Origin: Octopus vulgaris
Taxonomy: Eukaryota
Length of the DNA stretch: 64,000 nt
Assembly (NCBI GenBank): GCA_951406725.2
Contig: OX597826.1
Location: forward strand, 15,872,001 to 15,936,000
Direction of reading: 5' to 3'
The notes beneath the pieces were generated by a model. It saw only the letters and a list, made by a program, of their open reading frames with translations. It ran no database searches and was not told the origin of the DNA. The translations under genes and the position numbers were made by a program. How positions within the stretch are numbered: the stretch's first letter is position 1; each line of letters starts with the position of its first letter. Positions 1 through 22,782 of this stretch are shown here, one piece after another.

Positions 1-503
1 AAACTAGTCGGAGATGGTAACAGAAAATCAGCATAACAGAACCATAACTGGCATAGATAGGTTTCGTATCTCTACTTCCATAGATCAATTCCCATTTAAA
101 ACGTCCTGCATTTTTGTTTGCTTCATAAAATAGTGCCATTTAATCTTGCTGAATTCTATATATACATCTATAACGTTCTCCAAACGTTGCTGCATTTCGA
201 CTTTATTTGAAACACACACACATCTCAATCACAAGACATTCACACGATTTAAATACTTCTAAAATATCTACAATATTTTCACTTTAGTAATCGTTCTTAA
301 ATTTAATTTAAGCGGTTTTTTCTGCCATTTGCTTTTCAGAGTATATCCTGGGTAAATCTTCTCTCTCTGCTACAAATGTTTCCATCTCCATAAGATACGC
401 AAGAATATTCGGTTATATTTCGGTCATAACAAAACTATCACCAATCCTCATTTCCTTTCTTCCAAAAGCTGACAAAGTGTTGTCACTATTCCTTCACCGT
501 GAA

Positions 504-703
504 GGTGGCCAGATGGCAACATCTTTATCACGCCGGGTAAAAGGTTTAGTGGCATTTCGTCAGTCTTCATGTTCAGCGTTCAAATTCCACCGAGGTAGAC
601 TATAACTATCATCCATTTTGGCGTCGAGAAATTAAGTATGGTTTGAGTACTGAGGCCATTGTATTCGACTTACTCATTCCCCATAATTACTGGCTTTGTG
701 AAA
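504..703 (+). mobile_element. Diverged tRNA-derived SINE (family A)
   Basis: Aligns by eye with better-preserved copies at 24989-25215 and 38905-39135 (GTTCAAATTCCACCGAGGTAGAC B-box region, ATTAAGTA...ACTGAGG...TCGACTTA). Confidence 0.65.
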
Positions 704-850
704 TGTTCTTGTTGTAATGGTAAAATTTGGCAGTAACTTTCTTAATACGCACCATCTGTTCATCGTCGTTCACGTCGCCCTTTGAAATTAAATGATAGCA
801 AAACGTTACAGTTTATCGTTGTTGCACTTAATATTTATACAAGTCTTTCT

Positions 851-2610
851 TTAACCCTTGGTCTCCCAGAGAAAATTTATACCACTAATTACCAACAGGG
901 TCCAATGGACCCAATATTTTTGTTTTTAATTTAATTTTATTTAAACTACCTCAATTTCTTAGCTACATTATATATGCTATCAGGTGAATGAAGAATTACT
1001 GTTTCATAAAAATTTTAATTAATAAAATACAGCTTACAGAATATATTATAAATTAAAAAATTTACAAAAATACAGAATTACAAGTTTTCATTGCAGTGAT
1101 TGCAGACATTGGAATGTTCTCGGCAAACATGGATTTTACAATTCTTACATGTAGTGTGAGTTTTCCTGTCTATTCGTGTGTATGTGGTGAGGGGCTCACA
1201 AAGACGATCTTACCTTTTTCTGTGGCTGAGGAATCTCAAATGAGGTTGAAGAATGTCTTCTTTTCTTGTTTTGCCGAGAATCTTTAGCGGAAATAGAAGA
1301 TTGTTCGTCATGTTCTTATTCAGCATTAACTCCTTTCCTAACTGAATTAGGCTCTGTCTCCTTTTATCCTTGAAACTTTGCAAGTGAAGATGTTTAGCAA
1401 CAAAGAAAGCATTCACTGCACTTATATCAATCATGTTGTAGAATATAACCAGAAGCCATCTTCAAGTCATTATTTTGCAAGTGTATGTCATTACCATCTT
1501 ATTTAGGGTATCCACTACTCCTTTTGTTTTGTTGCAACAGGTAATAACTTTAGGTTTCTTTTCAGTACTTTTGGAATCAATTGAAGGCTAAGAGTGCATT
1601 GTACTAAAAAGTGGGACTACATAATTTTTCTTGGGAGAATAAGTTAGGCTATAGAATCATTTCGAAATCCAAATATTGTGCTGTTGATTTCTCCTCTTCC
1701 GTTTGTGAAAACACTTGGAAGTTCAACTCTGTTCTTTCTCATTGTTCCAACTAAAGTAGTTTTCTTCCTAAGCAGCTTTCGAGCCAATCCTAGACTTGTA
1801 AAAAAAATATCAAAAGTTATATGCAACCAGTATTTTCAAGGTATTTTACTAGGCCTTCAACGACTCTTGGACCTTGATTTGTCTTTCTCCCTTTTACTGG
1901 GTCTTTTCCAATGTAGATTTGCATTTTCCGGACATGTTTCACTGTCGCATAATGTACAAATTTTAATTCCATATTTCTCTGGATTTGAAAGAATATATAC
2001 CGGGAGTGGACAGCGCCCTCTGAATGAAACTAATTGTTCATCAACTGTCATGCAAGAACTTGGAACATATACATCTTGCAAGTTCTGATTCCACATTTCA
2101 AATAATTCCCTTATGGGCTCCAATTTATCATCACTTCTATTAGTTCTTCTTGCACTAGCATCATCAAAACGTAATACTAGTAAAATATATTGAACTCTTA
2201 TCCGGCTCAGAATTTTGTTGAATTTTGGGCGGCCATCTTCTTGACTCCATAACTGTGTGACATTTTTCGTGTTTAGATTTATAAACACCTATAAGAATAA
2301 TCAATTCAATAAATGTATTTCGTTCAGAGTGATCAGTTTCCTTCCATTTATCTTCGTAAACAATCTGACATTCAGCATTTGTTCATTTGCGAATTACTAC
2401 AAGAGGATTCTGGCGCATAAAGATATTAAGACCTTTTAGCAAAACCTTTTAGCAAAGTGGGATTGTCCACATTCTGGGCGAACATTATTGCAAGATGAAA
2501 TTCTTATTGCTGCTTGAATAAGAGGATTAAAACGCCAGACATTTTGTCTGTCTCTAGAAACATAGTACTCATTCATAATAGGGTATCTTCATTATCTGAT
2601 GACATAGAAC
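851..2610 (-). mobile_element. Decayed piggyBac DNA transposon: transposase pseudogene plus one terminus
   Basis: Minus-strand fragments carry piggyBac motifs LRFDD..., TVDEQLVSFRGRCP...KYGIK, FFTSL..RKLL...TTLVGTMRKNRVELP and MIDISAVNAF, plus a C-terminal Cys-rich domain (TCKNCKIHVCREHSNVCNHCN, stop at 1078-1080). TTAA at 851-854 is followed by CCCTT, the typical piggyBac end. Multiple frameshifts and stops. Confidence 0.9.
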
Positions 2611-2620
2611 CTCAACTGTC

Positions 2621-2879
2621 CGTTGTGTAAAACAACAAAAAAATGATGGTAAATATCCGTCAAATGTAAATAATGTAGATAATTCCTAATCTCTTAAATA
2701 TAGAACTGTATCATTGGATCTAGTTATTGTCGCCTGACTCATAATGTCACAAGTATATTTAACAATACATGATACCACTACGCCATATGCCCGTGGGCAC
2801 ATGACGTAGTGGTTAAGAGCACGGGCTACTAACCCCAAGATTCCGAGTTCGATTCCAGGCAGTGGCCTAATTAATAATG

Positions 2880-2919
<40 letters not shown>

Positions 2920-3209
2920 TGATGATGATGATGATGAATAATAATAAAAATAATAACAACAACCACAACAACAACAACAACATCGATATTACCTTAGGAA
3001 TGAGAACCCAGGTTCGAAATTTCCCCAAGACACCTGTTGAAGGCTGACATTTTGTGTTAACAACAAACAAGATGAGGACAAATATCCTCCAAATATAAAT
3101 AATATAAATAATGTTCATAATTCCTGAACGCGTAAATATAGAACTGTATCATTGGATCTAGATATTGTCACCTGACTCGTAATGTCACACGTATATTTAA
3201 CAATACATA
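2621..3209 (+). mobile_element. Non-autonomous retroelement: ~150-bp direct repeats around a tRNA-like Pol III head, a (TAA)n tract and a hammerhead remnant
   Basis: Direct repeats at 2621-2770 and 3052-3209. tRNA-like segment at 2795-2868 has A-box-like TGACGTAGTGG and B-box GTTCGATTC. ACAC-CTGTTGA-A-GGCTG...GTGT at 3030-3057. Confidence 0.7.
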
Positions 3210-3354
3210 TCAAAATATGACGGATATTTCTGCTTTTCCATCTTGATTTAAGGGCCTACTTTCGAATTACCATCATCGAATTCTTATTTCGATTTCAAGA
3301 ATATATTTCAGGTCGGTTCTGAATGGTTATCAACAATTTTTTCTCACTACACAA

Positions 3355-3505
3355 GGCGCAAGAGTGGCTGCGTAGTAAGTAGCTTGCTTACCAACCACAT
3401 GGTTACGGGTTCAGTCCCAGTACGTGGTATATTGCGCAAGTATATTCTACTATAGTCTGAAGTCTTCTACTTTTGACGGAAACTGAAAGAAGCCCGTCGT
3501 ATCTA
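3355..3505 (+). mobile_element. tRNA-derived SINE family B, head
   Basis: GGCGCAAGAGTGGCTGCGTAGTAAG...GGGTTCAGTCCCA...GACGGAAACTGAAAGAAGCCCGTCG. Matches copies at 29744 and 52305. Confidence 0.8.
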
Positions 3506-3507
3506 TG

Positions 3508-3589
<82 letters not shown>

Positions 3590-3591
3590 TA

Positions 3592-3800
3592 TAAGAAATT
3601 AAAAAAGGAAAATACGCACACTATTTTTTCTTAGGAAGAAATACCTATTCAAATAAGTAAAACATAGTATCATGAATAGCGATAGCGAAACCGGTCGATA
3701 CATCAAAATTATATTAAAACTATGTAAGTGTGCGTATTTCCCTTTTTTAATTTCTTATATACATTACAACTCACCACGTGGGAATAATCGAAATTCCTCT
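3592..3800 (+). mobile_element. PLE pseudo-LTR-like fragment with a short inverted repeat
   Basis: 3592-3621 is the reverse complement of about 3728-3757, and the interval encloses a hammerhead-like motif. Confidence 0.5.
3667..3701 (+). ncRNA. Minimal type I hammerhead ribozyme variant (A3-U8 core)
   Basis: GTATC|ATGAATA|GC-GATA-GC|GAAA|CCG|GTC|GATAC: 5-bp stem I, 2-bp stem II, palindromic ACCGGT stem III region, GUC cleavage triplet. Confidence 0.7.
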
Positions 3801-3837
3801 TTTCTGTTAATACTACTATATATATATATAAATATGA

Positions 3838-4050
3838 CTGTGTGTCTGTGTTTGTACCCTACCATCACTTGATAACTGATGTTGGTGTGTTTACATCTCT
3901 GTAACTTAGTGATTCGGCAAAAGAAACAAATAGAATAAGGACTAAGGTTAGAAAGAATAAGTCCTGGGATCGATTTGTTCGTCTAAAGGCGGTACTCTAG
4001 CAGGCCTGCAATCAAATGACTGAAACAAATAAAAGAATAAAAGAAAGAGT
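3838..4050 (+). mobile_element. SINE family B, 3' part
   Basis: TGTGTTTGTACCCTACCATC...GTAACTTAGTGATTCGGCAAAAG...AATGACTGAAACAA. Homologous to 11885-12040, 46870-47090 and 52082-52245. Confidence 0.75.
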
Positions 4051-4580
4051 ATGATTAATGGACATCCGTTGCTCTTTGCAATCATCCATGCTTACAAATT
4101 ATTTCATTTAAATACTGGATTGAAATCGCATCACAAACATAGCACTTTTACTATCCATAATATTGCGATGTATAGATGGTCGTCTGTGACACACATCGAT
4201 ATAATTCATCTTCTAAATCATTTATCTTATATCATTTCCATGCTTTGTTCTATGCATTTGTTCCGGGTCTTAATATCTGTTATCCTTCAGATAACATTCA
4301 CCTGAATAATGCATATCACAACTGCACTATCCCTATGAACAGAAATCTCAAAAACGTTATAAAATATGATCATATCAATCTTGTCTCACACAGCAACATA
4401 AAACATAATCAATATTTTCGAAGAAAGCTACAAACCCGTAGAATATTGTCAATATTCAACTTGATCTCTCAAGATCACTTTAAATGCCAGCCCACGACAT
4501 CACTGATTGTTTAACTCAGGAATCACACATTTGCAACAGCAAATTTATGTCACGAAAATTGACCTTTATTTTTAGAGTTT

Positions 4581-4876
4581 GAGGTACATGGGCTAGTGGT
4601 TAGAGCAGCGGACTCGGATTTAAGGGATGACGAGTTCGAATCTAAGACTGAGCGATGTGTATGTTTATGAGCGAAACACTTAAGCTCCACGCAGCCCCGA
4701 CAGAAGGTAATGGCGAACTTCAGCTGACTCTTTCGCCACAACTTTCTCTCACTCTTTCTTCCTGCATCTAGTAGCTCACCTGTGACGGACCGGCGTCCCG
4801 TTAAGGTGGGGAACCTATACGTCAATGAAACTGGGAGACCGGCCCTTATGAACCAGGAATGGCTCGAGAAGGAACG
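4581..4876 (+). mobile_element. tRNA-derived SINE family C
   Basis: A-box-like TGGGCTAGTGG and B-box GTTCGAATC. Shares head and core (CTTTCGCCACAACTTTCTCTCACTC) with 60595-60894. Confidence 0.75.
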
Positions 4877-4889
4877 AAAAACAACTACA

Positions 4890-5420
4890 TAACTAGCTAT
4901 GTATCTATATATTGAAGAAACGATATCCTTAAGAACACTTCATGTGATGATGTGAATCTACTGAATGTTCTATACAAGAATCCTTTCATCTGACTTCCAC
5001 GAATAATTTCCAGAAAACTATGTTCCGGGGCAATTCCTTTTTCCGGTGAAAATTGACGGTATCGCTTGCGCGGTTTTCCCGAGCCTATCAGAGCAAGAAG
5101 GTATGAACGAAGCCTTGAACGCAACATTTCAAGTGTCGAACACATACATTTTGTAAGAAATGTTTTGAGTAGTCGCTGAAGCATGGATGTTGGATCTCGC
5201 TATTTATGAAGTACGTCATGGTCAAGCAATATAATCACGACACTTGTTGATGATTTGTCTGTAGGTGCAGCGCGTACCTTGAGATCCCGAATCCAGAATA
5301 TTAAAAACCCCAACTTCTATCGCTTTTGTCAGAGCCATGCATTTCAGAAGTACTACAGTGTCTTCAATGTTATTTTGCAAGTCGGTTTTCCCTGTTTCGA
5401 CTGGACAACCATTGAACACC
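4890..5420 (-). pseudogene. Possible very old PLE-type reverse transcriptase remnant
   Basis: Minus-strand frames give PTDKSSTSVVII (cf. ADKG..VVI) and IGSGKPRK (cf. YGLPKIHK) in the expected order. Weak, interrupted match. Confidence 0.25.
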
Positions 5421-5924
5421 TGTGAGATGTATAATTCTAGCTAATTATATAATTTTAGATATATCATTTTAGCTTCATATACATTTAGAAATACAGAGGG
5501 CCGCGCGCATTATTTTGTTCCTTCATAATAGCTATACACGTAACGCGTCTTCTTCTTCCATGATACACACACAGCTGTGTATTTTTATGTAATCTAACTT
5601 ACTCAAGAATAGGCAAAACATTCAACGTCACACATATCTTGCACCCATCCTTTATCTTTCTTTTAGCAATGAAATTTATTTCCCTCCCAAAACTTACCAA
5701 TTGATCTGTAATCATGATTAAAAATCGACTCGCTGCAAATACTTCTGTTACGGAAAAACAAAGCTACTCTCCGTTCTGCCTATATTTAATCTTGTATTTA
5801 ATGAATAACATACTGTCCGAAACTGGAGTAGAATTTTATTTTTGTTCTTACTGCGTCTCGTCTACTAATAGATTTGTTTTGTATTTGCTTGTCAACCTTT
5901 TATGATGTTCCCTTGAAATTTTCA

Positions 5925-6945
5925 GCATGTTGGCGCAGAAATTACGTCCGCCTTTCTTCGGGGATTTATATTTCGGATTAAATTTCTTCTTTTGCTATCA
6001 TTCTTAGGGCACCTATGACAACAGGTATTGTATTAGTCTTCAGGTTACACATTTTGCCAATTTCTATTTCAAGATCATTATACTTGGTCAGTTTTTCGTA
6101 GGTCTTGACAGATACATTTATGTCGATTGGGACAATCATCGATGAGGAGGCATGGTTTTTGTCTGGTCTTTCAATGTAATTTCTGGCCTATTCGCATCAA
6201 TCTTTCTGTCAGTTTTGAACAGTGAATTTCCAGATGAGTGAGATGTGATCATTTTGAAACACTGGGGGCCGTTTGTATTCCCACCAGTGTTTATCATGGG
6301 GCAGGTCCAGGTGTTTGTAAATTAACCAGAGAATGTATTGTGCTGCTCTATCATGCCTGTTGACATACTCTGTAGGCGCAAGAAGACTTCACATGGAGAT
6401 AAAATGATAAATGGTTTCATTTTGTTGTTTATATACACGACATGTTGGGCCAAACAAAAGAGGACTGTTGATAGAGTGTCACACTGGAAAATTCCACATG
6501 ACATTCATACATCTCCAGCATTGAGAAAGGCATTGTCACTGATCAAAGTCTGTGTGGTTCTCCATGTTTTCATACTTACAGACTAGAGGTTTCTCAGTTC
6601 TATTTTATACGTTTTCCAGACATCTCTTAATCCAGCTATGTGGTAGACTAGCAAAAACTTTTTTATAGTCTAACCAGACTATCGACAAGTTTTTGTGTCC
6701 TTTGTGATAATGTTCCAATATCATCTTATTGATGAGTAGCTGATCCCAACAACCATATGACCTACGTTTAGATCCTTTTGCTCATTAGGGAATACGCCAC
6801 TTTTTATTAAAACACATTAGGTATATTCAGTGAAGACAGATGTTAGTATTTTATACACTGTTGTTAAGCAGGTTATGGGTCTATAATTTTTGGTTCATTT
6901 GTTTTGGAAGTAGGAATGTTATGACTTTAGCTAGCCAAGAGGGTA
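5925..6945 (-). mobile_element. R4/Dong-like non-LTR retrotransposon fragment with internal deletion
   Basis: Reverse strand gives EQKG..RRSYGC.DQLLINKMILE (RT start) near 6700-6790, and ANRPEI, YEKLTKYNDLEIE and TIPVVIG (REL endonuclease) near 6000-6200. Abuts a (TTA)n tract. Confidence 0.8.
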
Positions 6946-6961
6946 GCATAATAGGTTGTTG

Positions 6962-7187
<226 letters not shown>

Positions 7188-7191
<4 letters not shown>

Positions 7192-7900
7192 TAGTTTTAA
7201 TTTTATAGCGTGATTGCACTTCACTACCGAGCGCAGCTCTATGTGCCTTGGGTATGTGCTGAGATTTGTTGTGATGCTCTGAGGGTTACAGTATTGAAAG
7301 TGTTTTGCGTAGGATGTGTGCAGTGCCTAGTAGTGCAATTTTCTGTATGTTATATATATTTGTAAATTCTGGTGTTTTTGTTATGTATTTGTCTGAATAT
7401 TTTTTATCATACCTAATGCGCCTACTATGAGAGGAATTGTTTCTGTTTTTAGTTGCTTCATTCGAGTTACGAGGTCTTTGTATTTAGAAAGTTTCTCCAT
7501 TTCTTTTAGAGACACGTTGTCATCTACTGGTATTAATACATCAATTAGAAAGCATTTTTTTCTTCATGATCTCTGACAACTATATCTGGCCTATTGTCCT
7601 TAAGTTCTTTATCTGTGTGTATTGGCATATCCCAGAGTATGGTTGCTTTCTCGTTTTCTGTGACCTTTTCTGGTGTGTGCCTATAACATCTTTTTTCTGT
7701 TGTTCTTCCATAATATTGGCATAGCTTCCAGTGTATGTAGGTCCCAACTCTGTCGTGTCTGTGAATATATTCCTTCTTAGCCAGGACTGGGCAGCTAGAG
7801 ATAATATGATTTATTATTTCTTGTCCATCTCCACATATTCTGCAGTTACTTGTTATGCTTCTTTTCATTATATGTTTTTGGTAACTTCTGGTGGGGAGGC
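7188..7900 (-). mobile_element. R4/Dong-like LINE, 5'-truncated copy (CCHC knuckle, REL endonuclease, 3' UTR)
   Basis: ORF 7545-7868: CRICGDGQEIINHIISSC...YIHRHD...ILWDMPIHTDK...NRPDIVV. Flanked on both sides by (TAA)n. Confidence 0.9.
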
Positions 7901-7973
<73 letters not shown>

Positions 7974-9636
7974 TATTATTATTGTTGTGGTTGCTGTTGT
8001 TGTTGCTGTTGTTGTTGTTGGTGGTGGTGTTATTGTAGTTGTTGTTGCTGTTATTATTATTGATACGATTCATTTTACCATCATTTTCGACGATTTATAC
8101 ATACACACGCATATATTAAACAAAAGAAAAATGATATTTTAAAACAACATTACACTCGTGTCAGTAGAGTGATTTGAAATGCAAGAGTATTACATTATTT
8201 TTAAGATATCGAATAACATGGCTTTATAATCACCTCATGAACTTGTATCATCTACCAGATGTCATGGCAAACTTTCCGTTAAATCCATGAGGAAAAAATA
8301 TTTATCAATGAGATTGCAACACGAAGATTAACATAGGCTAGGGATATCATATTTGCTGAGTAATCCTCGTAAGGTATGTAGTGTTAGAGAAGAGTGGTTG
8401 AATAAGCATATATAATTCATAACTTCAAATTTACTACTTATCAAGGGATATTAAAAATTGATGACAAAACAGCTAGCTGTATTCTAAAATGATATAAGCT
8501 TATCGTGCTTATACATACATATATATTTTTTGAAGCAGTTCCTGAATATCAAGTTAACCGATTTCATTTTCCTCCCTATATTTACATACAAAATATATAT
8601 TTACGTAGGATCAAGAAACGAAAATTTCACATTTAATACATTTGCTAAAACTTATTGCCATGCAGTTTATATACAGAAAACTTTTGATTTCATCATTACT
8701 CATAACACCCTCTTCTTTAGTACTGATTTCTAATCTACAGTATTTTAAGTTTTAAATAAATGCGTTTCAATTTTAAGTGAATCATACGTGCTATCGTCTA
8801 ACTTCATTAAAAATATAAACCATTTTCATATACGAAATATAATATTTGTTTGCTTATAAATAAACACAGTTTCAATTGATAATGATTTACTATTTACTAT
8901 GTGGAATTTTATAAAAGAAATTCTAAAAAGTATGCTTTTAGTTGTCATTCTCGACATATTTCCAAACTGGAAAGAGATTCTGATAGTGAGTTCGTAGATG
9001 GTTTATACTGTAATATGCTTTGAACGATTAAATTTGTTATTGTTAGGTCACGTCATTGTAAAGATCTATTCACCAAAATAGATATTAACGTGCTAGCAAC
9101 CACATATAAATCGCAATATTTGTGCATAATTCTCGTTGATTTCATAAGAAAATATATTAATGCAATTTGTTTACTTTAAAAGAACAGGGCACTATGCGAA
9201 CTCGATGATGGAACAGACAATTAGTATGAAATTGATTTACTAGCAAAAAGGAGTCAGAACATGTTTCTGTGTTCAATAAAATGATACGATTGACAATGTG
9301 TAGTAGATGGTGCTCAATATGTATATATTACTTCGGAAGTACGGTAATAGACGATATAGTGAGTTAGGTGTATGTCATTGAGACAAATTTCGAAAATATT
9401 ATTACATATCAGACATTGCCAGAAGCATTTGGAATTTACATTTTCATTTTAAAAAAGTTGTTTCCTCCAACCTAATGAAAAATTATTGGTAAATATCATG
9501 TACGTTACAATTACACAATCACTTAGTTATCTATATCAATAATGTTACAGCACTTCGTCAGTTGATGATATTAAATCACTGTACATATATACATACATAC
9601 ACGCATGCATATATACATAATTACATATATATAAAA

Positions 9637-15380: not shown

Positions 15381-15509
15381 GCTGACAGCGAATTCTCTCA
15401 AATTAAACACGAATTTGATAGCTTCTTTTCAAATGCATCAACATATGTAAACAAACTTATTTTTGCTTTCAGAGGCGTCGAATGTGTATAGTATCATATA
15501 GAAGGAGTG

Positions 15510-15721
15510 GCTTTTGTGGAAACTGGATTCTCGAGGTGGTCATTAAACTCTGCAGTAATTTTAATTACCTCTTTCTGATGATATCTGGAAAGAAAAAGCA
15601 ATTTTAGCAAAATATATTAAGCAACACTAATAATAAATCAAAATACATAAAAAAACAAGCTTTTGATGGTCTTATAGATATTTGAAAACTACGATGCTAT
15701 GATGCTAGGTGTTTCCAGTAT
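15510..15721 (-). repeat. Inverted duplication of the 5' part of the adjacent Tc1 element
   Basis: Near-identical reverse complement of 15738-15948 with a 16-bp spacer. Confidence 0.95.
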
Positions 15722-15722
15722 A

Positions 15723-16702
15723 CAGGCGTTGAACAAAATACTGGAAACACCTAGCATCATAGCATCGTAGTTTTCAAATATCTATAAGACCATCAAAAGC
15801 TTGTTTTTTATGTATTTTGATTTATTATTAGTGTTGCTTAATATATTTTGCTAAAATTGCTTTTTCTTTCCAGATATCATCAGAAAAAGGTAATTAAAAT
15901 TACTGCAGAGTTTAATGACCACCTCGAGAATCCAGTTTCCACAAAAGCTATTCGCCGGGAGGTGCACAAAGCCGGAATCTCGGGACGGCTGCAATCCGAA
16001 AACCAGTACTTTCAAAAACAAACGTTTCAAGGCGATTTGAGTGGAGTAAAAACCTACAGAATTGGTCCCCTACATCAGTGGATGAATGTTATTTTCTCGG
16101 ACGAGTCATCATATACCTTATTTCTGACCACCAGCCAAGTGTATGTGTGGAGACAGCATTTGACCCAGACTGCCTTCTTCCAACCGTTAAACATGGAGGA
16201 GGATGTGTGATGATCTGGGGGAGGGGTTGTATCTTGGAAATCCACCGGTCCAATGGTTTCCTTTCATGGTAGAATTAATAGTCAAGTCTATTTAAGCATT
16301 TTATGATTCATCCTATGGTTGCGAACTGTTTCCGGAGGGAACCGTAATCTTTTAGGAAGATAATGCACCAATTCACACAGCTAAAGTTGCTACTGAATGG
16401 CATGACGAACATTCTAGTGAAGTTGAACATCTTGTCTGGCCACTATAGTCCCCAGATCTCAATATTATTGAACATTGGTGCATTTTCGAATAACCAGTAT
16501 ATATCGACATCCTCCACCATCATCACTACAAGAACTGGAGACTTGTTTTAGCTGAAGAATGGACAAAAATGCCTTTGGAAATAATTGAAACTTTGTATGA
16601 GTCCATACATCGTAGAATTCAAGCTGCAATTACTACCAAAGGCGGTTCTTTCCCTATATTAAATATAATTTGTTTGAAATTTTAAGTGTTTTCCAACCCT
16701 AT
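15723..16702 (+). mobile_element. Tc1-family DNA transposon, decayed and internally deleted
   Basis: TA-CAGGCGTTGAACAAAATACTGGAAACACC left end and degenerate right end ...GTGTTTTCCAACCCTATA. Motifs WMNVIFSDES, PTVKHGGGCVMIWG, EDNAPIH and SPDLNIIE fit a DD34E-type transposase. Frameshifted. Confidence 0.9.
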
Positions 16703-21951: not shown

Positions 21952-22782
21952 GGATCTTTTCCTTTTGAACGACACTTTGTAACATAATTTCTATGTAACT
22001 AAAGAGTTTTTAACTTCCTATACTGGTAGATTGTGTTATAAAACACCATTTTCTATTGGCGTTATTGAGAAACTTCTATAGGTTGTAAAATATTTTGTCT
22101 TTAATTTCGAGCATTTCGGAAATTTTAACCAATCGCTGGAGTCCATTTAGGTAAATAACATTCTGTGCTTAATGAATGTCTCCCTCCTTTAAGAAACAGA
22201 TTAGGTTTATTTACATTTGTGAAGAAAAAAAAGATACCCTTCCCCAACACCTAACCCTAACCCTAACTCTAACCCTAAATCTAAAATAGATTGAAATGCA
22301 ATAGATCGATACTAGGGCCATAATTATGGGTGACATTTTCATTTGACACCGCTAGAAAAAAATCCCATTTTCCGTGGCGGTGTCGTATGAAATTGTCACC
22401 CATAATTATGGCCCTAGTATCGATCTATTGCATTTCAATCTATTTTAGATTTAGGGTGAGAGTTAGAGTCAGGGTTAGGGTTAGGGGTGGGGGAAGGGTA
22501 TCTCTTTTCTTCATAAATGTAAATAAACCCAATCTGTTTCTTAAACGAGGGACATATTCAAACAGCAGGGAATGTTGTTGACCTAAATGGACTCCAGCGT
22601 TTGGTTAAAACTCCCGAAATGCTCGAAATTAAAGACGAAATATCTTACAACCTATAGAATTTTCTCAATAAAGCCAAGAGAAAATGATGTTTTATAAACA
22701 CATTCTACCAATATACGAAGTCTAAAAGTGTTTAGTTTACTAGAAATTCTGTTGAAAAGTGCCGTTCAAAAGGAAAAGATCC
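21952..22782. mobile_element. Fold-back (palindromic) non-autonomous DNA element with internal telomeric repeats
   Basis: Arms of about 400 bp are reverse complements (GGATCTTTTCCTTTTGAACG...CGTTCAAAAGGAAAAGATCC). (CCCTAA)n at about 22249-22278 and (TTAGGG)n at about 22450-22486. Flanks AAACAGAT and AAACAGGT form an 8-bp TSD with 1 mismatch. Confidence 0.9.

Follow-up and report, generated by a model that had tools for sequence, protein, structure and literature searches.

A tRNA-like head in the terminal repeat of an octopus Penelope-like element and its probable part in forming SINE-like copies

Related elements with hammerheads or internal promoters

Penelope-like elements with an endonuclease (EN+ PLEs), such as PAc of the anole, carry one ORF in which the reverse transcriptase (RT) is followed by a GIY-YIG endonuclease, a terminal repeat (pLTR) that overlaps the first codons and a hammerhead ribozyme near the start codon. 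Their copies show two 3' ends 30 to 40 nt apart, 5' truncation, inverted arms and partial tandems (PMC11167929, PMC8557442), and the octopus family described here is alike in all of these features. The PAc ribozyme is located within the first codons, its cleavage is unnecessary for insertion in vitro, and reverse transcription begins inside the ORF at two sites, which explains the tail (PMC11167929). The distance from ATG to cut is 71 nt in the octopus family compared with 26 in PAc. Unlike PAc, the octopus pLTR begins with a tRNA-like head bearing A- and B-box motifs and with a (TAA)n tract, and the majority of copies extending as far as the head end there. In metazoan PLEs, minimal type I hammerheads have one additional base between positions 9 and 10.1, a long helix II, a helix I of 4 to 5 bp and a palindromic helix III rudiment (ACGT), and occur dispersed, singly or as opposite-strand pairs 100 to 700 bp apart; the octopus ribozyme, a predicted one, shares these traits and shows no sequence difference from them (PMC4209133).

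Three further groups resemble the family in part. Sm-alpha and Sj-alpha of schistosomes are likewise tRNA-derived, apparently Pol III-transcribed units with a hammerhead, but they are non-coding and often tandem, and their canonical ribozyme releases monomers, whereas the octopus unit is the pLTR of a coding element and has a minimal ribozyme (PMC6765202, PMC2770079). Animal non-LTR retrozymes have in common with it a type I hammerhead, a 170- to 400-nt size class and a proposed PLE origin and mobilization (PMC7229834, bioRxiv 10.64898/2026.07.22.740005). They are defined by a tandem arrangement in which every unit has its own full ribozyme and by RNA in circular form (PMC7229834, bioRxiv 10.64898/2026.07.22.740005), whereas in octopus, tandems are rare and the unit has a promoter-like head. 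Retrozymes have been argued to be PLE derivatives (bioRxiv 10.64898/2026.07.22.740005, PMC7229834, PMC7761336); a term search of the first of these texts found none of the words tRNA, Pol III and promoter. The TRIMp3 elements Cassandra, Helenus and Ajax also have a terminal repeat that contains a Pol III promoter derived from a small RNA. These are non-autonomous LTR elements, whereas the octopus head sits in an autonomous element, and their autonomous partners are argued to require Pol II (PMC10886601). Penelope families also appear in a repeat annotation of octopus, whose excerpts mention neither ribozymes nor Pol III (PMC13282606).

Our literature search found no autonomous PLE with a tRNA-type promoter; the family may be present in Repbase, Dfam or supplementary files. 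To our knowledge, Pol II is regarded as indispensable for autonomous retrotransposons, and SINEs are regarded as separate parasites of LINEs. If a Penelope terminal repeat is a tRNA-type promoter, SINE-like copies can arise without a separate parasite lineage, and Penelope-dependent SINEs, Sm-alpha-like elements or retrozymes could originate in this way.

Layout of the locus and its apparent tandem

The window is the whole 64,000-nt stretch of Octopus vulgaris DNA that was analyzed, and the locus occupies positions 2621 to 3209. A preliminary description had read the locus as about 1.35 copies of a ~430-bp retrozyme-like unit. The period was indeed about 430, with about 1.37 units, and the head, the (TAA)n tract and the ACAC-CTGTTGA-A-GGCTG...GTGTT motif were all found as described (Table 1). 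The sequence is thus real, yet it is no retrozyme: it is the pLTR of a Penelope/Poseidon-type element, a clade name that we take from motifs rather than from a tree. From left to right, the locus consists of a piggyBac relic, copy A, the 58-nt sequence X, a 26-nt inverted head, the head, (TAA)n, the body of copy B and X again.

Table 1. Features at the locus, in window coordinates
Feature	Position	Strand	Remark
piggyBac-like DNA transposon relic, left flank	870..2621	-	start approximate; breaks off exactly at 2621
Copy A, pLTR 3' fragment from GTT cleavage triplet to tail end	2622..2712	+	consensus 2553-2652
X1, first copy of 58-nt locus-specific sequence	2713..2770	+	likely duplicated target or flank
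Inverted 26-nt copy of head	2774..2799	-	100% to consensus 2364-2389
tRNA-like head, likely Pol III promoter	2795..2867	+	A-box-like 2802-2812, B-box-like 2847-2856
(TAA)n/(TGA)n/(CAA)n tract, internal to family pLTR	2872..2981	+	TRF calls (TAA)n at 2872-2956
Copy B, pLTR body and tail, first ~55 Penelope ORF codons	2982..3150	+	ATG 3000-3002
Broken minimal type I hammerhead, with ACAC-CTGTTGA-A-GGCTG...GTGTT at 3030-3058	3029..3058	+	A6>T, 16-nt net deletion
X2, second copy of 58-nt locus-specific sequence	3151..3208	+	4/58 mismatches to X1

The piggyBac relic, which contains a Pfam DDE_Tnp_1_7 match at 1857-2285 (E 6e-24), belongs to an abundant family (1,301 candidates in the genome search). 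A search of the first 6 kb did not find its remaining part right of 3208. The short inverted head, overlooked in the preliminary description, pivots on the palindrome GCCC-AC/GT-GGGC and is a Penelope-type 5' inversion. Directly after X2, positions 3215-3250 may be a degenerate inverted pLTR tail (33 matches with gaps).

Segments 2623-2770 and 3052-3208 aligned at 82% over 158 columns (E 1e-38). The supposed 150-bp repeat is therefore present twice, but it combines about 90 nt of family sequence with 58 nt confined to the locus. Genome matches to 2990-3215 stopped at about 3150 (40 scored of 1,529 candidates), and X had two genome matches, both in the window, by a search in which absence of a match is no proof of rarity. 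Origins of X as piggyBac sequence or as family tail were rejected by sequence comparison. Copy A differs from the family consensus at 7 of 89 positions. Differences between A and B are spread unevenly: the family part has 13 in 71 positions, and the final 76 nt have only 4 (P = 0.019). We infer that the local tandem is two independent family copies plus a duplicated 58-bp flank. Copy B may have inserted at the tail end of the older fragment A, duplicating the flank, and both would have decayed later. This insertion model is uncertain because divergence between the two X copies (4/58) is below twice that of B (about 10%). For the tandem only, it is possible, if less probable, that repair at a later time, by template switch or gene conversion, copied 76 nt of B tail and flank onto another pLTR fragment and deleted part of piggyBac; the restriction of high identity to these 76 nt and the missing piggyBac part would fit such an event, while the identical base at which the 3' ends of A and B meet X, and the tendency of PLEs to insert beside older copies (PMC6765202), speak against it.

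The first repeat had also been described as bounded by a cleavage site. It starts with GTTGTGT/CGTTGTGT, 3 to 4 nt upstream of the predicted cut GTT/GTG, and so it retains the cleavage triplet and has no cleavage-defined end; RNA cleaved at the hammerhead would be without that triplet. The local hammerhead lacks the 3' half of stem II as well as GAAA, as described; this net loss of 16 nt relative to the family also creates TTTT at 3050-3053, and the core additionally carries A6>T (CTGTTGA). The local A-box-like motif has one substitution relative to the family. Given the broken ribozyme and the new TTTT, the locus copy is dead, and in itself it is just one further example of the family.

The coding element that carries the terminal repeat

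The proposed link to Penelope held, the unit being the pLTR of an element with RT and GIY-YIG endonuclease. Element order is ORF stop, about 30 nt, palindrome, tRNA-like head, (TAA)n, ATG, minimal hammerhead, tail and remainder of the ORF. ORF ends were sampled as the best 30 of 2,778 candidates, of which 25 were legible and 3 of these 25 were near-duplicates. Beyond the query end, the ORF end led into the head in 23 of the 25 legible loci and into the palindrome only in 2; in locus L002, a GIY-YIG-type ORF end lies directly upstream of the head. The junction from ORF 3' UTR to head had 133 exact genome matches. In a consensus built from ORF-region loci, a single long frame carried the DKG motif and motifs of RT and endonuclease. 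Pfam RVT_1 scored above the cut-off in two of three real fragments (E 3e-10 and 6e-10), and Pfam GIY-YIG gave no match in the fragments, including that of the endonuclease; GIY-YIG-type C-terminal motifs were read by eye in L002 and in the consensus. The Zn-finger linker of Neptune/Nematis was not seen by eye in the consensus.

At ORF-start loci, the part from hammerhead to tail lay directly upstream in 8 of 22, forming a pLTR partial tandem. The unit had been called non-coding; the pLTR ATG frame instead runs through the hammerhead into the ORF and is unbroken in the consensus of these eight loci. Head, hammerhead and ORF are continuous in L404 and L419, and in the full consensus of 2,652 nt, the head lies 115 nt upstream of the ATG. 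A tail intron joining a downstream ATG to the ORF was rejected: an unspliced frame exists, and no such joint was listed in the run contigs. These contigs, whose sequencing runs were only presumed to be RNA, span the pLTR and the ORF end, are uninformative on starts, strand and level, and contained no informative joint. ORF-start copies (L401, L407, L411, L413 and L415-L418) often end 57 to 67 nt beyond the usual tail end, which suggests a third RT start site.

By sequence criteria, the family is an EN+ Penelope-like element, with RT and GIY-YIG, partial tandem, inverted arms, tail and minimal hammerhead all found. The traits that define PLEs are present, whereas the retrozyme traits of tandem complete units, independence from an ORF and boundaries at the cut site are not. 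As for a tRNA-derived SINE, the 5'-terminal A/B-box head was found, and an independent lineage with target site duplications (TSDs) was not.

Abundance was estimated from exact matches in the genome (2.8 Gb, 227 contigs). As anticipated in the preliminary description, intact hammerheads exist elsewhere: the 42-mer of the intact minimal motif had 1,381 matches, compared with 2,409 for a tail 37-mer, 286 for a head 39-mer and 22 for an ORF-start 30-mer, and reversed controls had 0. From these counts at about 6% divergence, the family likely exceeds 10,000 copies and would be of the order of 20,000. Loci were then drawn as the first listed matches and are not random: 90 tail-pattern loci with 92 arms and 90 hammerhead loci from contig C1, and 70 head-pattern loci from C1 to C3. 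The hammerhead core was intact in 26 of 81 tail-selected arms. A second ribozyme was found within 700 nt on the opposite strand in 16 of 90 hammerhead loci and on the same strand in 1 of 90.

Short and ORF-linked copies diverge by 5.6% and 6.3%, respectively, and common variants occur in both sets (81 and 49 copies). The lowest P among 87 tests was 0.0007, for deletions in the ORF-linked set, and was borderline after correction. The commonest deletion in the region is an in-frame loss of 3 nt at the cut site (consensus 2553-2555; window 3051-3053), present in 8 of 72 copies, or in 11 of 81 under a looser rule. It may be a cleavage scar; slippage between GT repeats could also have produced it. 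Its use as a subfamily marker was rejected, no linked allele being found.

Copy ends and the ribozyme

Where copies begin bears directly on the model of the preliminary description, in which the hammerhead of a separate, non-coding SINE/retrozyme hybrid would produce ~430-nt monomers or circles for copying in trans by a Penelope RT, the locus being a more-than-unit copy of such a circle. We consider this very unlikely. Starts near the cut, which had been expected to cluster, were at background: 6 of 91 fell within 2550-2563 (P = 0.23), and the tail set had 7 of 92 at 2550-2572 (0.34%/nt), similar to neighboring bins. Abundant intact hammerheads, the in-frame loss at the cut, the precedent of schistosome Sm-alpha (PMC6765202, PMC2770079) and the starts of the locus copy and 2 of 92 others at 2552-2553 are in its favor, but the locus copy begins before the cut rather than at it. 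Both local units are incomplete, the 430-nt unit contains 58 nt found nowhere else, and its two copies diverge unevenly. A ribozyme-processed parasite is further disfavored by ends that gather at the head and by the single same-strand ribozyme pair. Nor is there a lineage of its own, since short copies form no distinct subfamily and the unit encodes protein and runs on into the ORF.

At the other side of the copies, 3' ends were bimodal, with 44 of 92 at 2608-2623 and 46 of 92 at 2644-2652, two sites about 35 nt apart. LINE-type TSDs had been predicted to be missing, and a TSD of at least 8 nt was seen in only 1 of 19 simple copies. Inverted arms adjoined 50 of 92 tail-selected and 37 of 70 head-selected copies. 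The tail set had 24 starts in the microsatellite class, about 5 of them short head remnants. Many copies start inside (TAA)n and are joined to (TAA)n tails of other repeats (L101, L104, L150, L153, L159, L184, L232 and L303); the microsatellite within the element is a likely source of 5' microhomology.

The tRNA-like head and a proposed Pol III promoter

The family head matched genomic tRNA-Arg genes in 49 to 51 of 75 columns (z about 7 against shuffles), the highest agreement in a comparison with 30 tRNA genes that represented a few isotypes. Motifs that we take to be A and B boxes are present at tRNA spacing, and the A/B-box head proposed earlier was thus borne out. ARAGORN on the window did not call the head a tRNA, and no cloverleaf fold was found; Rfam on window positions 1-8000 and on one good copy called neither tRNA nor hammerhead. 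RNase P processing at the head is unlikely because of the missing cloverleaf. Among the 32 tail-selected copies that reach the head, the A-box motif was kept in 17 and the B-box motif in 22.

Copies begin preferentially at this head. In the tail set, 27 of 35 started at 2354-2379 (5.7%/nt) and 8 ran beyond. In the head set, 54 of 70 started at consensus 2354-2371, at 8%/nt compared with 0 to 0.5%/nt upstream, and 16 extended into the ORF. The head had been described as internal, not 5'-terminal; this is correct for ORF-linked copies only, and in those 54 head-bearing copies it is 5'-terminal, as in SINEs. The peaks of the head set are at 2371 (tRNA +1, 11 copies) and 2364 (10 copies). Pol III starts are expected about there, 7 and 14 nt before the A box. 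Inverted arms were absent from 19 of 41 copies starting at 2362-2371, and 4 of the 22 ORF-start loci had a forward piece attached directly at 2364-2366, as would be expected when RT reaches the RNA end and then jumps.

These starts suggest, with a probability of roughly two-thirds, that the head is a Pol III promoter yielding SINE-like RNAs that are copied by the element's own RT. RNA would start about 6 nt before tRNA +1 of the head. By analogy with anole PAc, the element protein would bind the first codons and initiate reverse transcription internally, and any head-started RNA would be a full substrate, since the RT-binding and start region lies within those codons. Such RNAs, mostly uncleaved, would give inserts of 280 to 400 nt. 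SINE-like inserts would arise by the thousand, often with inverted arms, and the ribozyme would seldom set an end.

A perfect palindrome lies exactly at the start cluster, however, where it could capture cDNA ends even if no promoter existed. On this basis, the head might be a passenger, left by a tRNA-SINE that landed downstream of the ORF in a master Penelope copy and was carried along; Pol II would read the element, and head starts would be produced only by cDNA stalling, fold-back or annealing at the palindrome. The inverted arms of head-selected copies and the 12 starts mapped at 2354-2357, which are fold-backs, agree with this, as do the Pol II features of the pLTR promoter in known PLEs (PMC8557442). 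We nevertheless regard it as unlikely: the starts lacking an inverted arm and the forward joins speak against it, the two peaks fall in the start region expected of Pol III, and the sense strand has no TTTT, a weak point.

The last observation merits caution. Zero TTTT in the 2,652-nt consensus had P = 0.0065 under base shuffling, 0.039 under synonymous and 0.076 under dinucleotide shuffling, and five LINE ORF fragments held 4 in 3,954 nt, about 1 per kb, giving P of about 0.07. GGGG is likewise absent from the consensus. In view of these controls, we rejected the absence of TTTT as proof of Pol III; it is only suggestive. Together with the position of the head 115 nt before the ATG and the continuous head-to-ORF copies, it underlies a tentative extension of the Pol III promoter reading that we hold to be somewhat doubtful, namely, that the whole 2.65-kb coding element is transcribed by Pol III from a captured tRNA promoter, its uncapped RNA being translated and the hammerhead regulating or trimming it. 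If so, one element would be LINE and SINE at once, an origin of Penelope-dependent SINEs caught in the act, and translation of a Pol III-read ORF would become a direct question.

A repeat search of the whole window was dominated by microsatellites. Two other very common interspersed repeats are present at 3354-3458, which also has a tRNA-like head, and at 3817-4041. A minus-strand fragment at 7545-7890, flanked by (TTA)n, resembles by eye a LINE restriction-like endonuclease. Long inverted repeats occupy 22036-22697 (193-nt arms, 89%) and 15505-15953 (150-nt arms, 98%) and bear no relation to the Penelope family.
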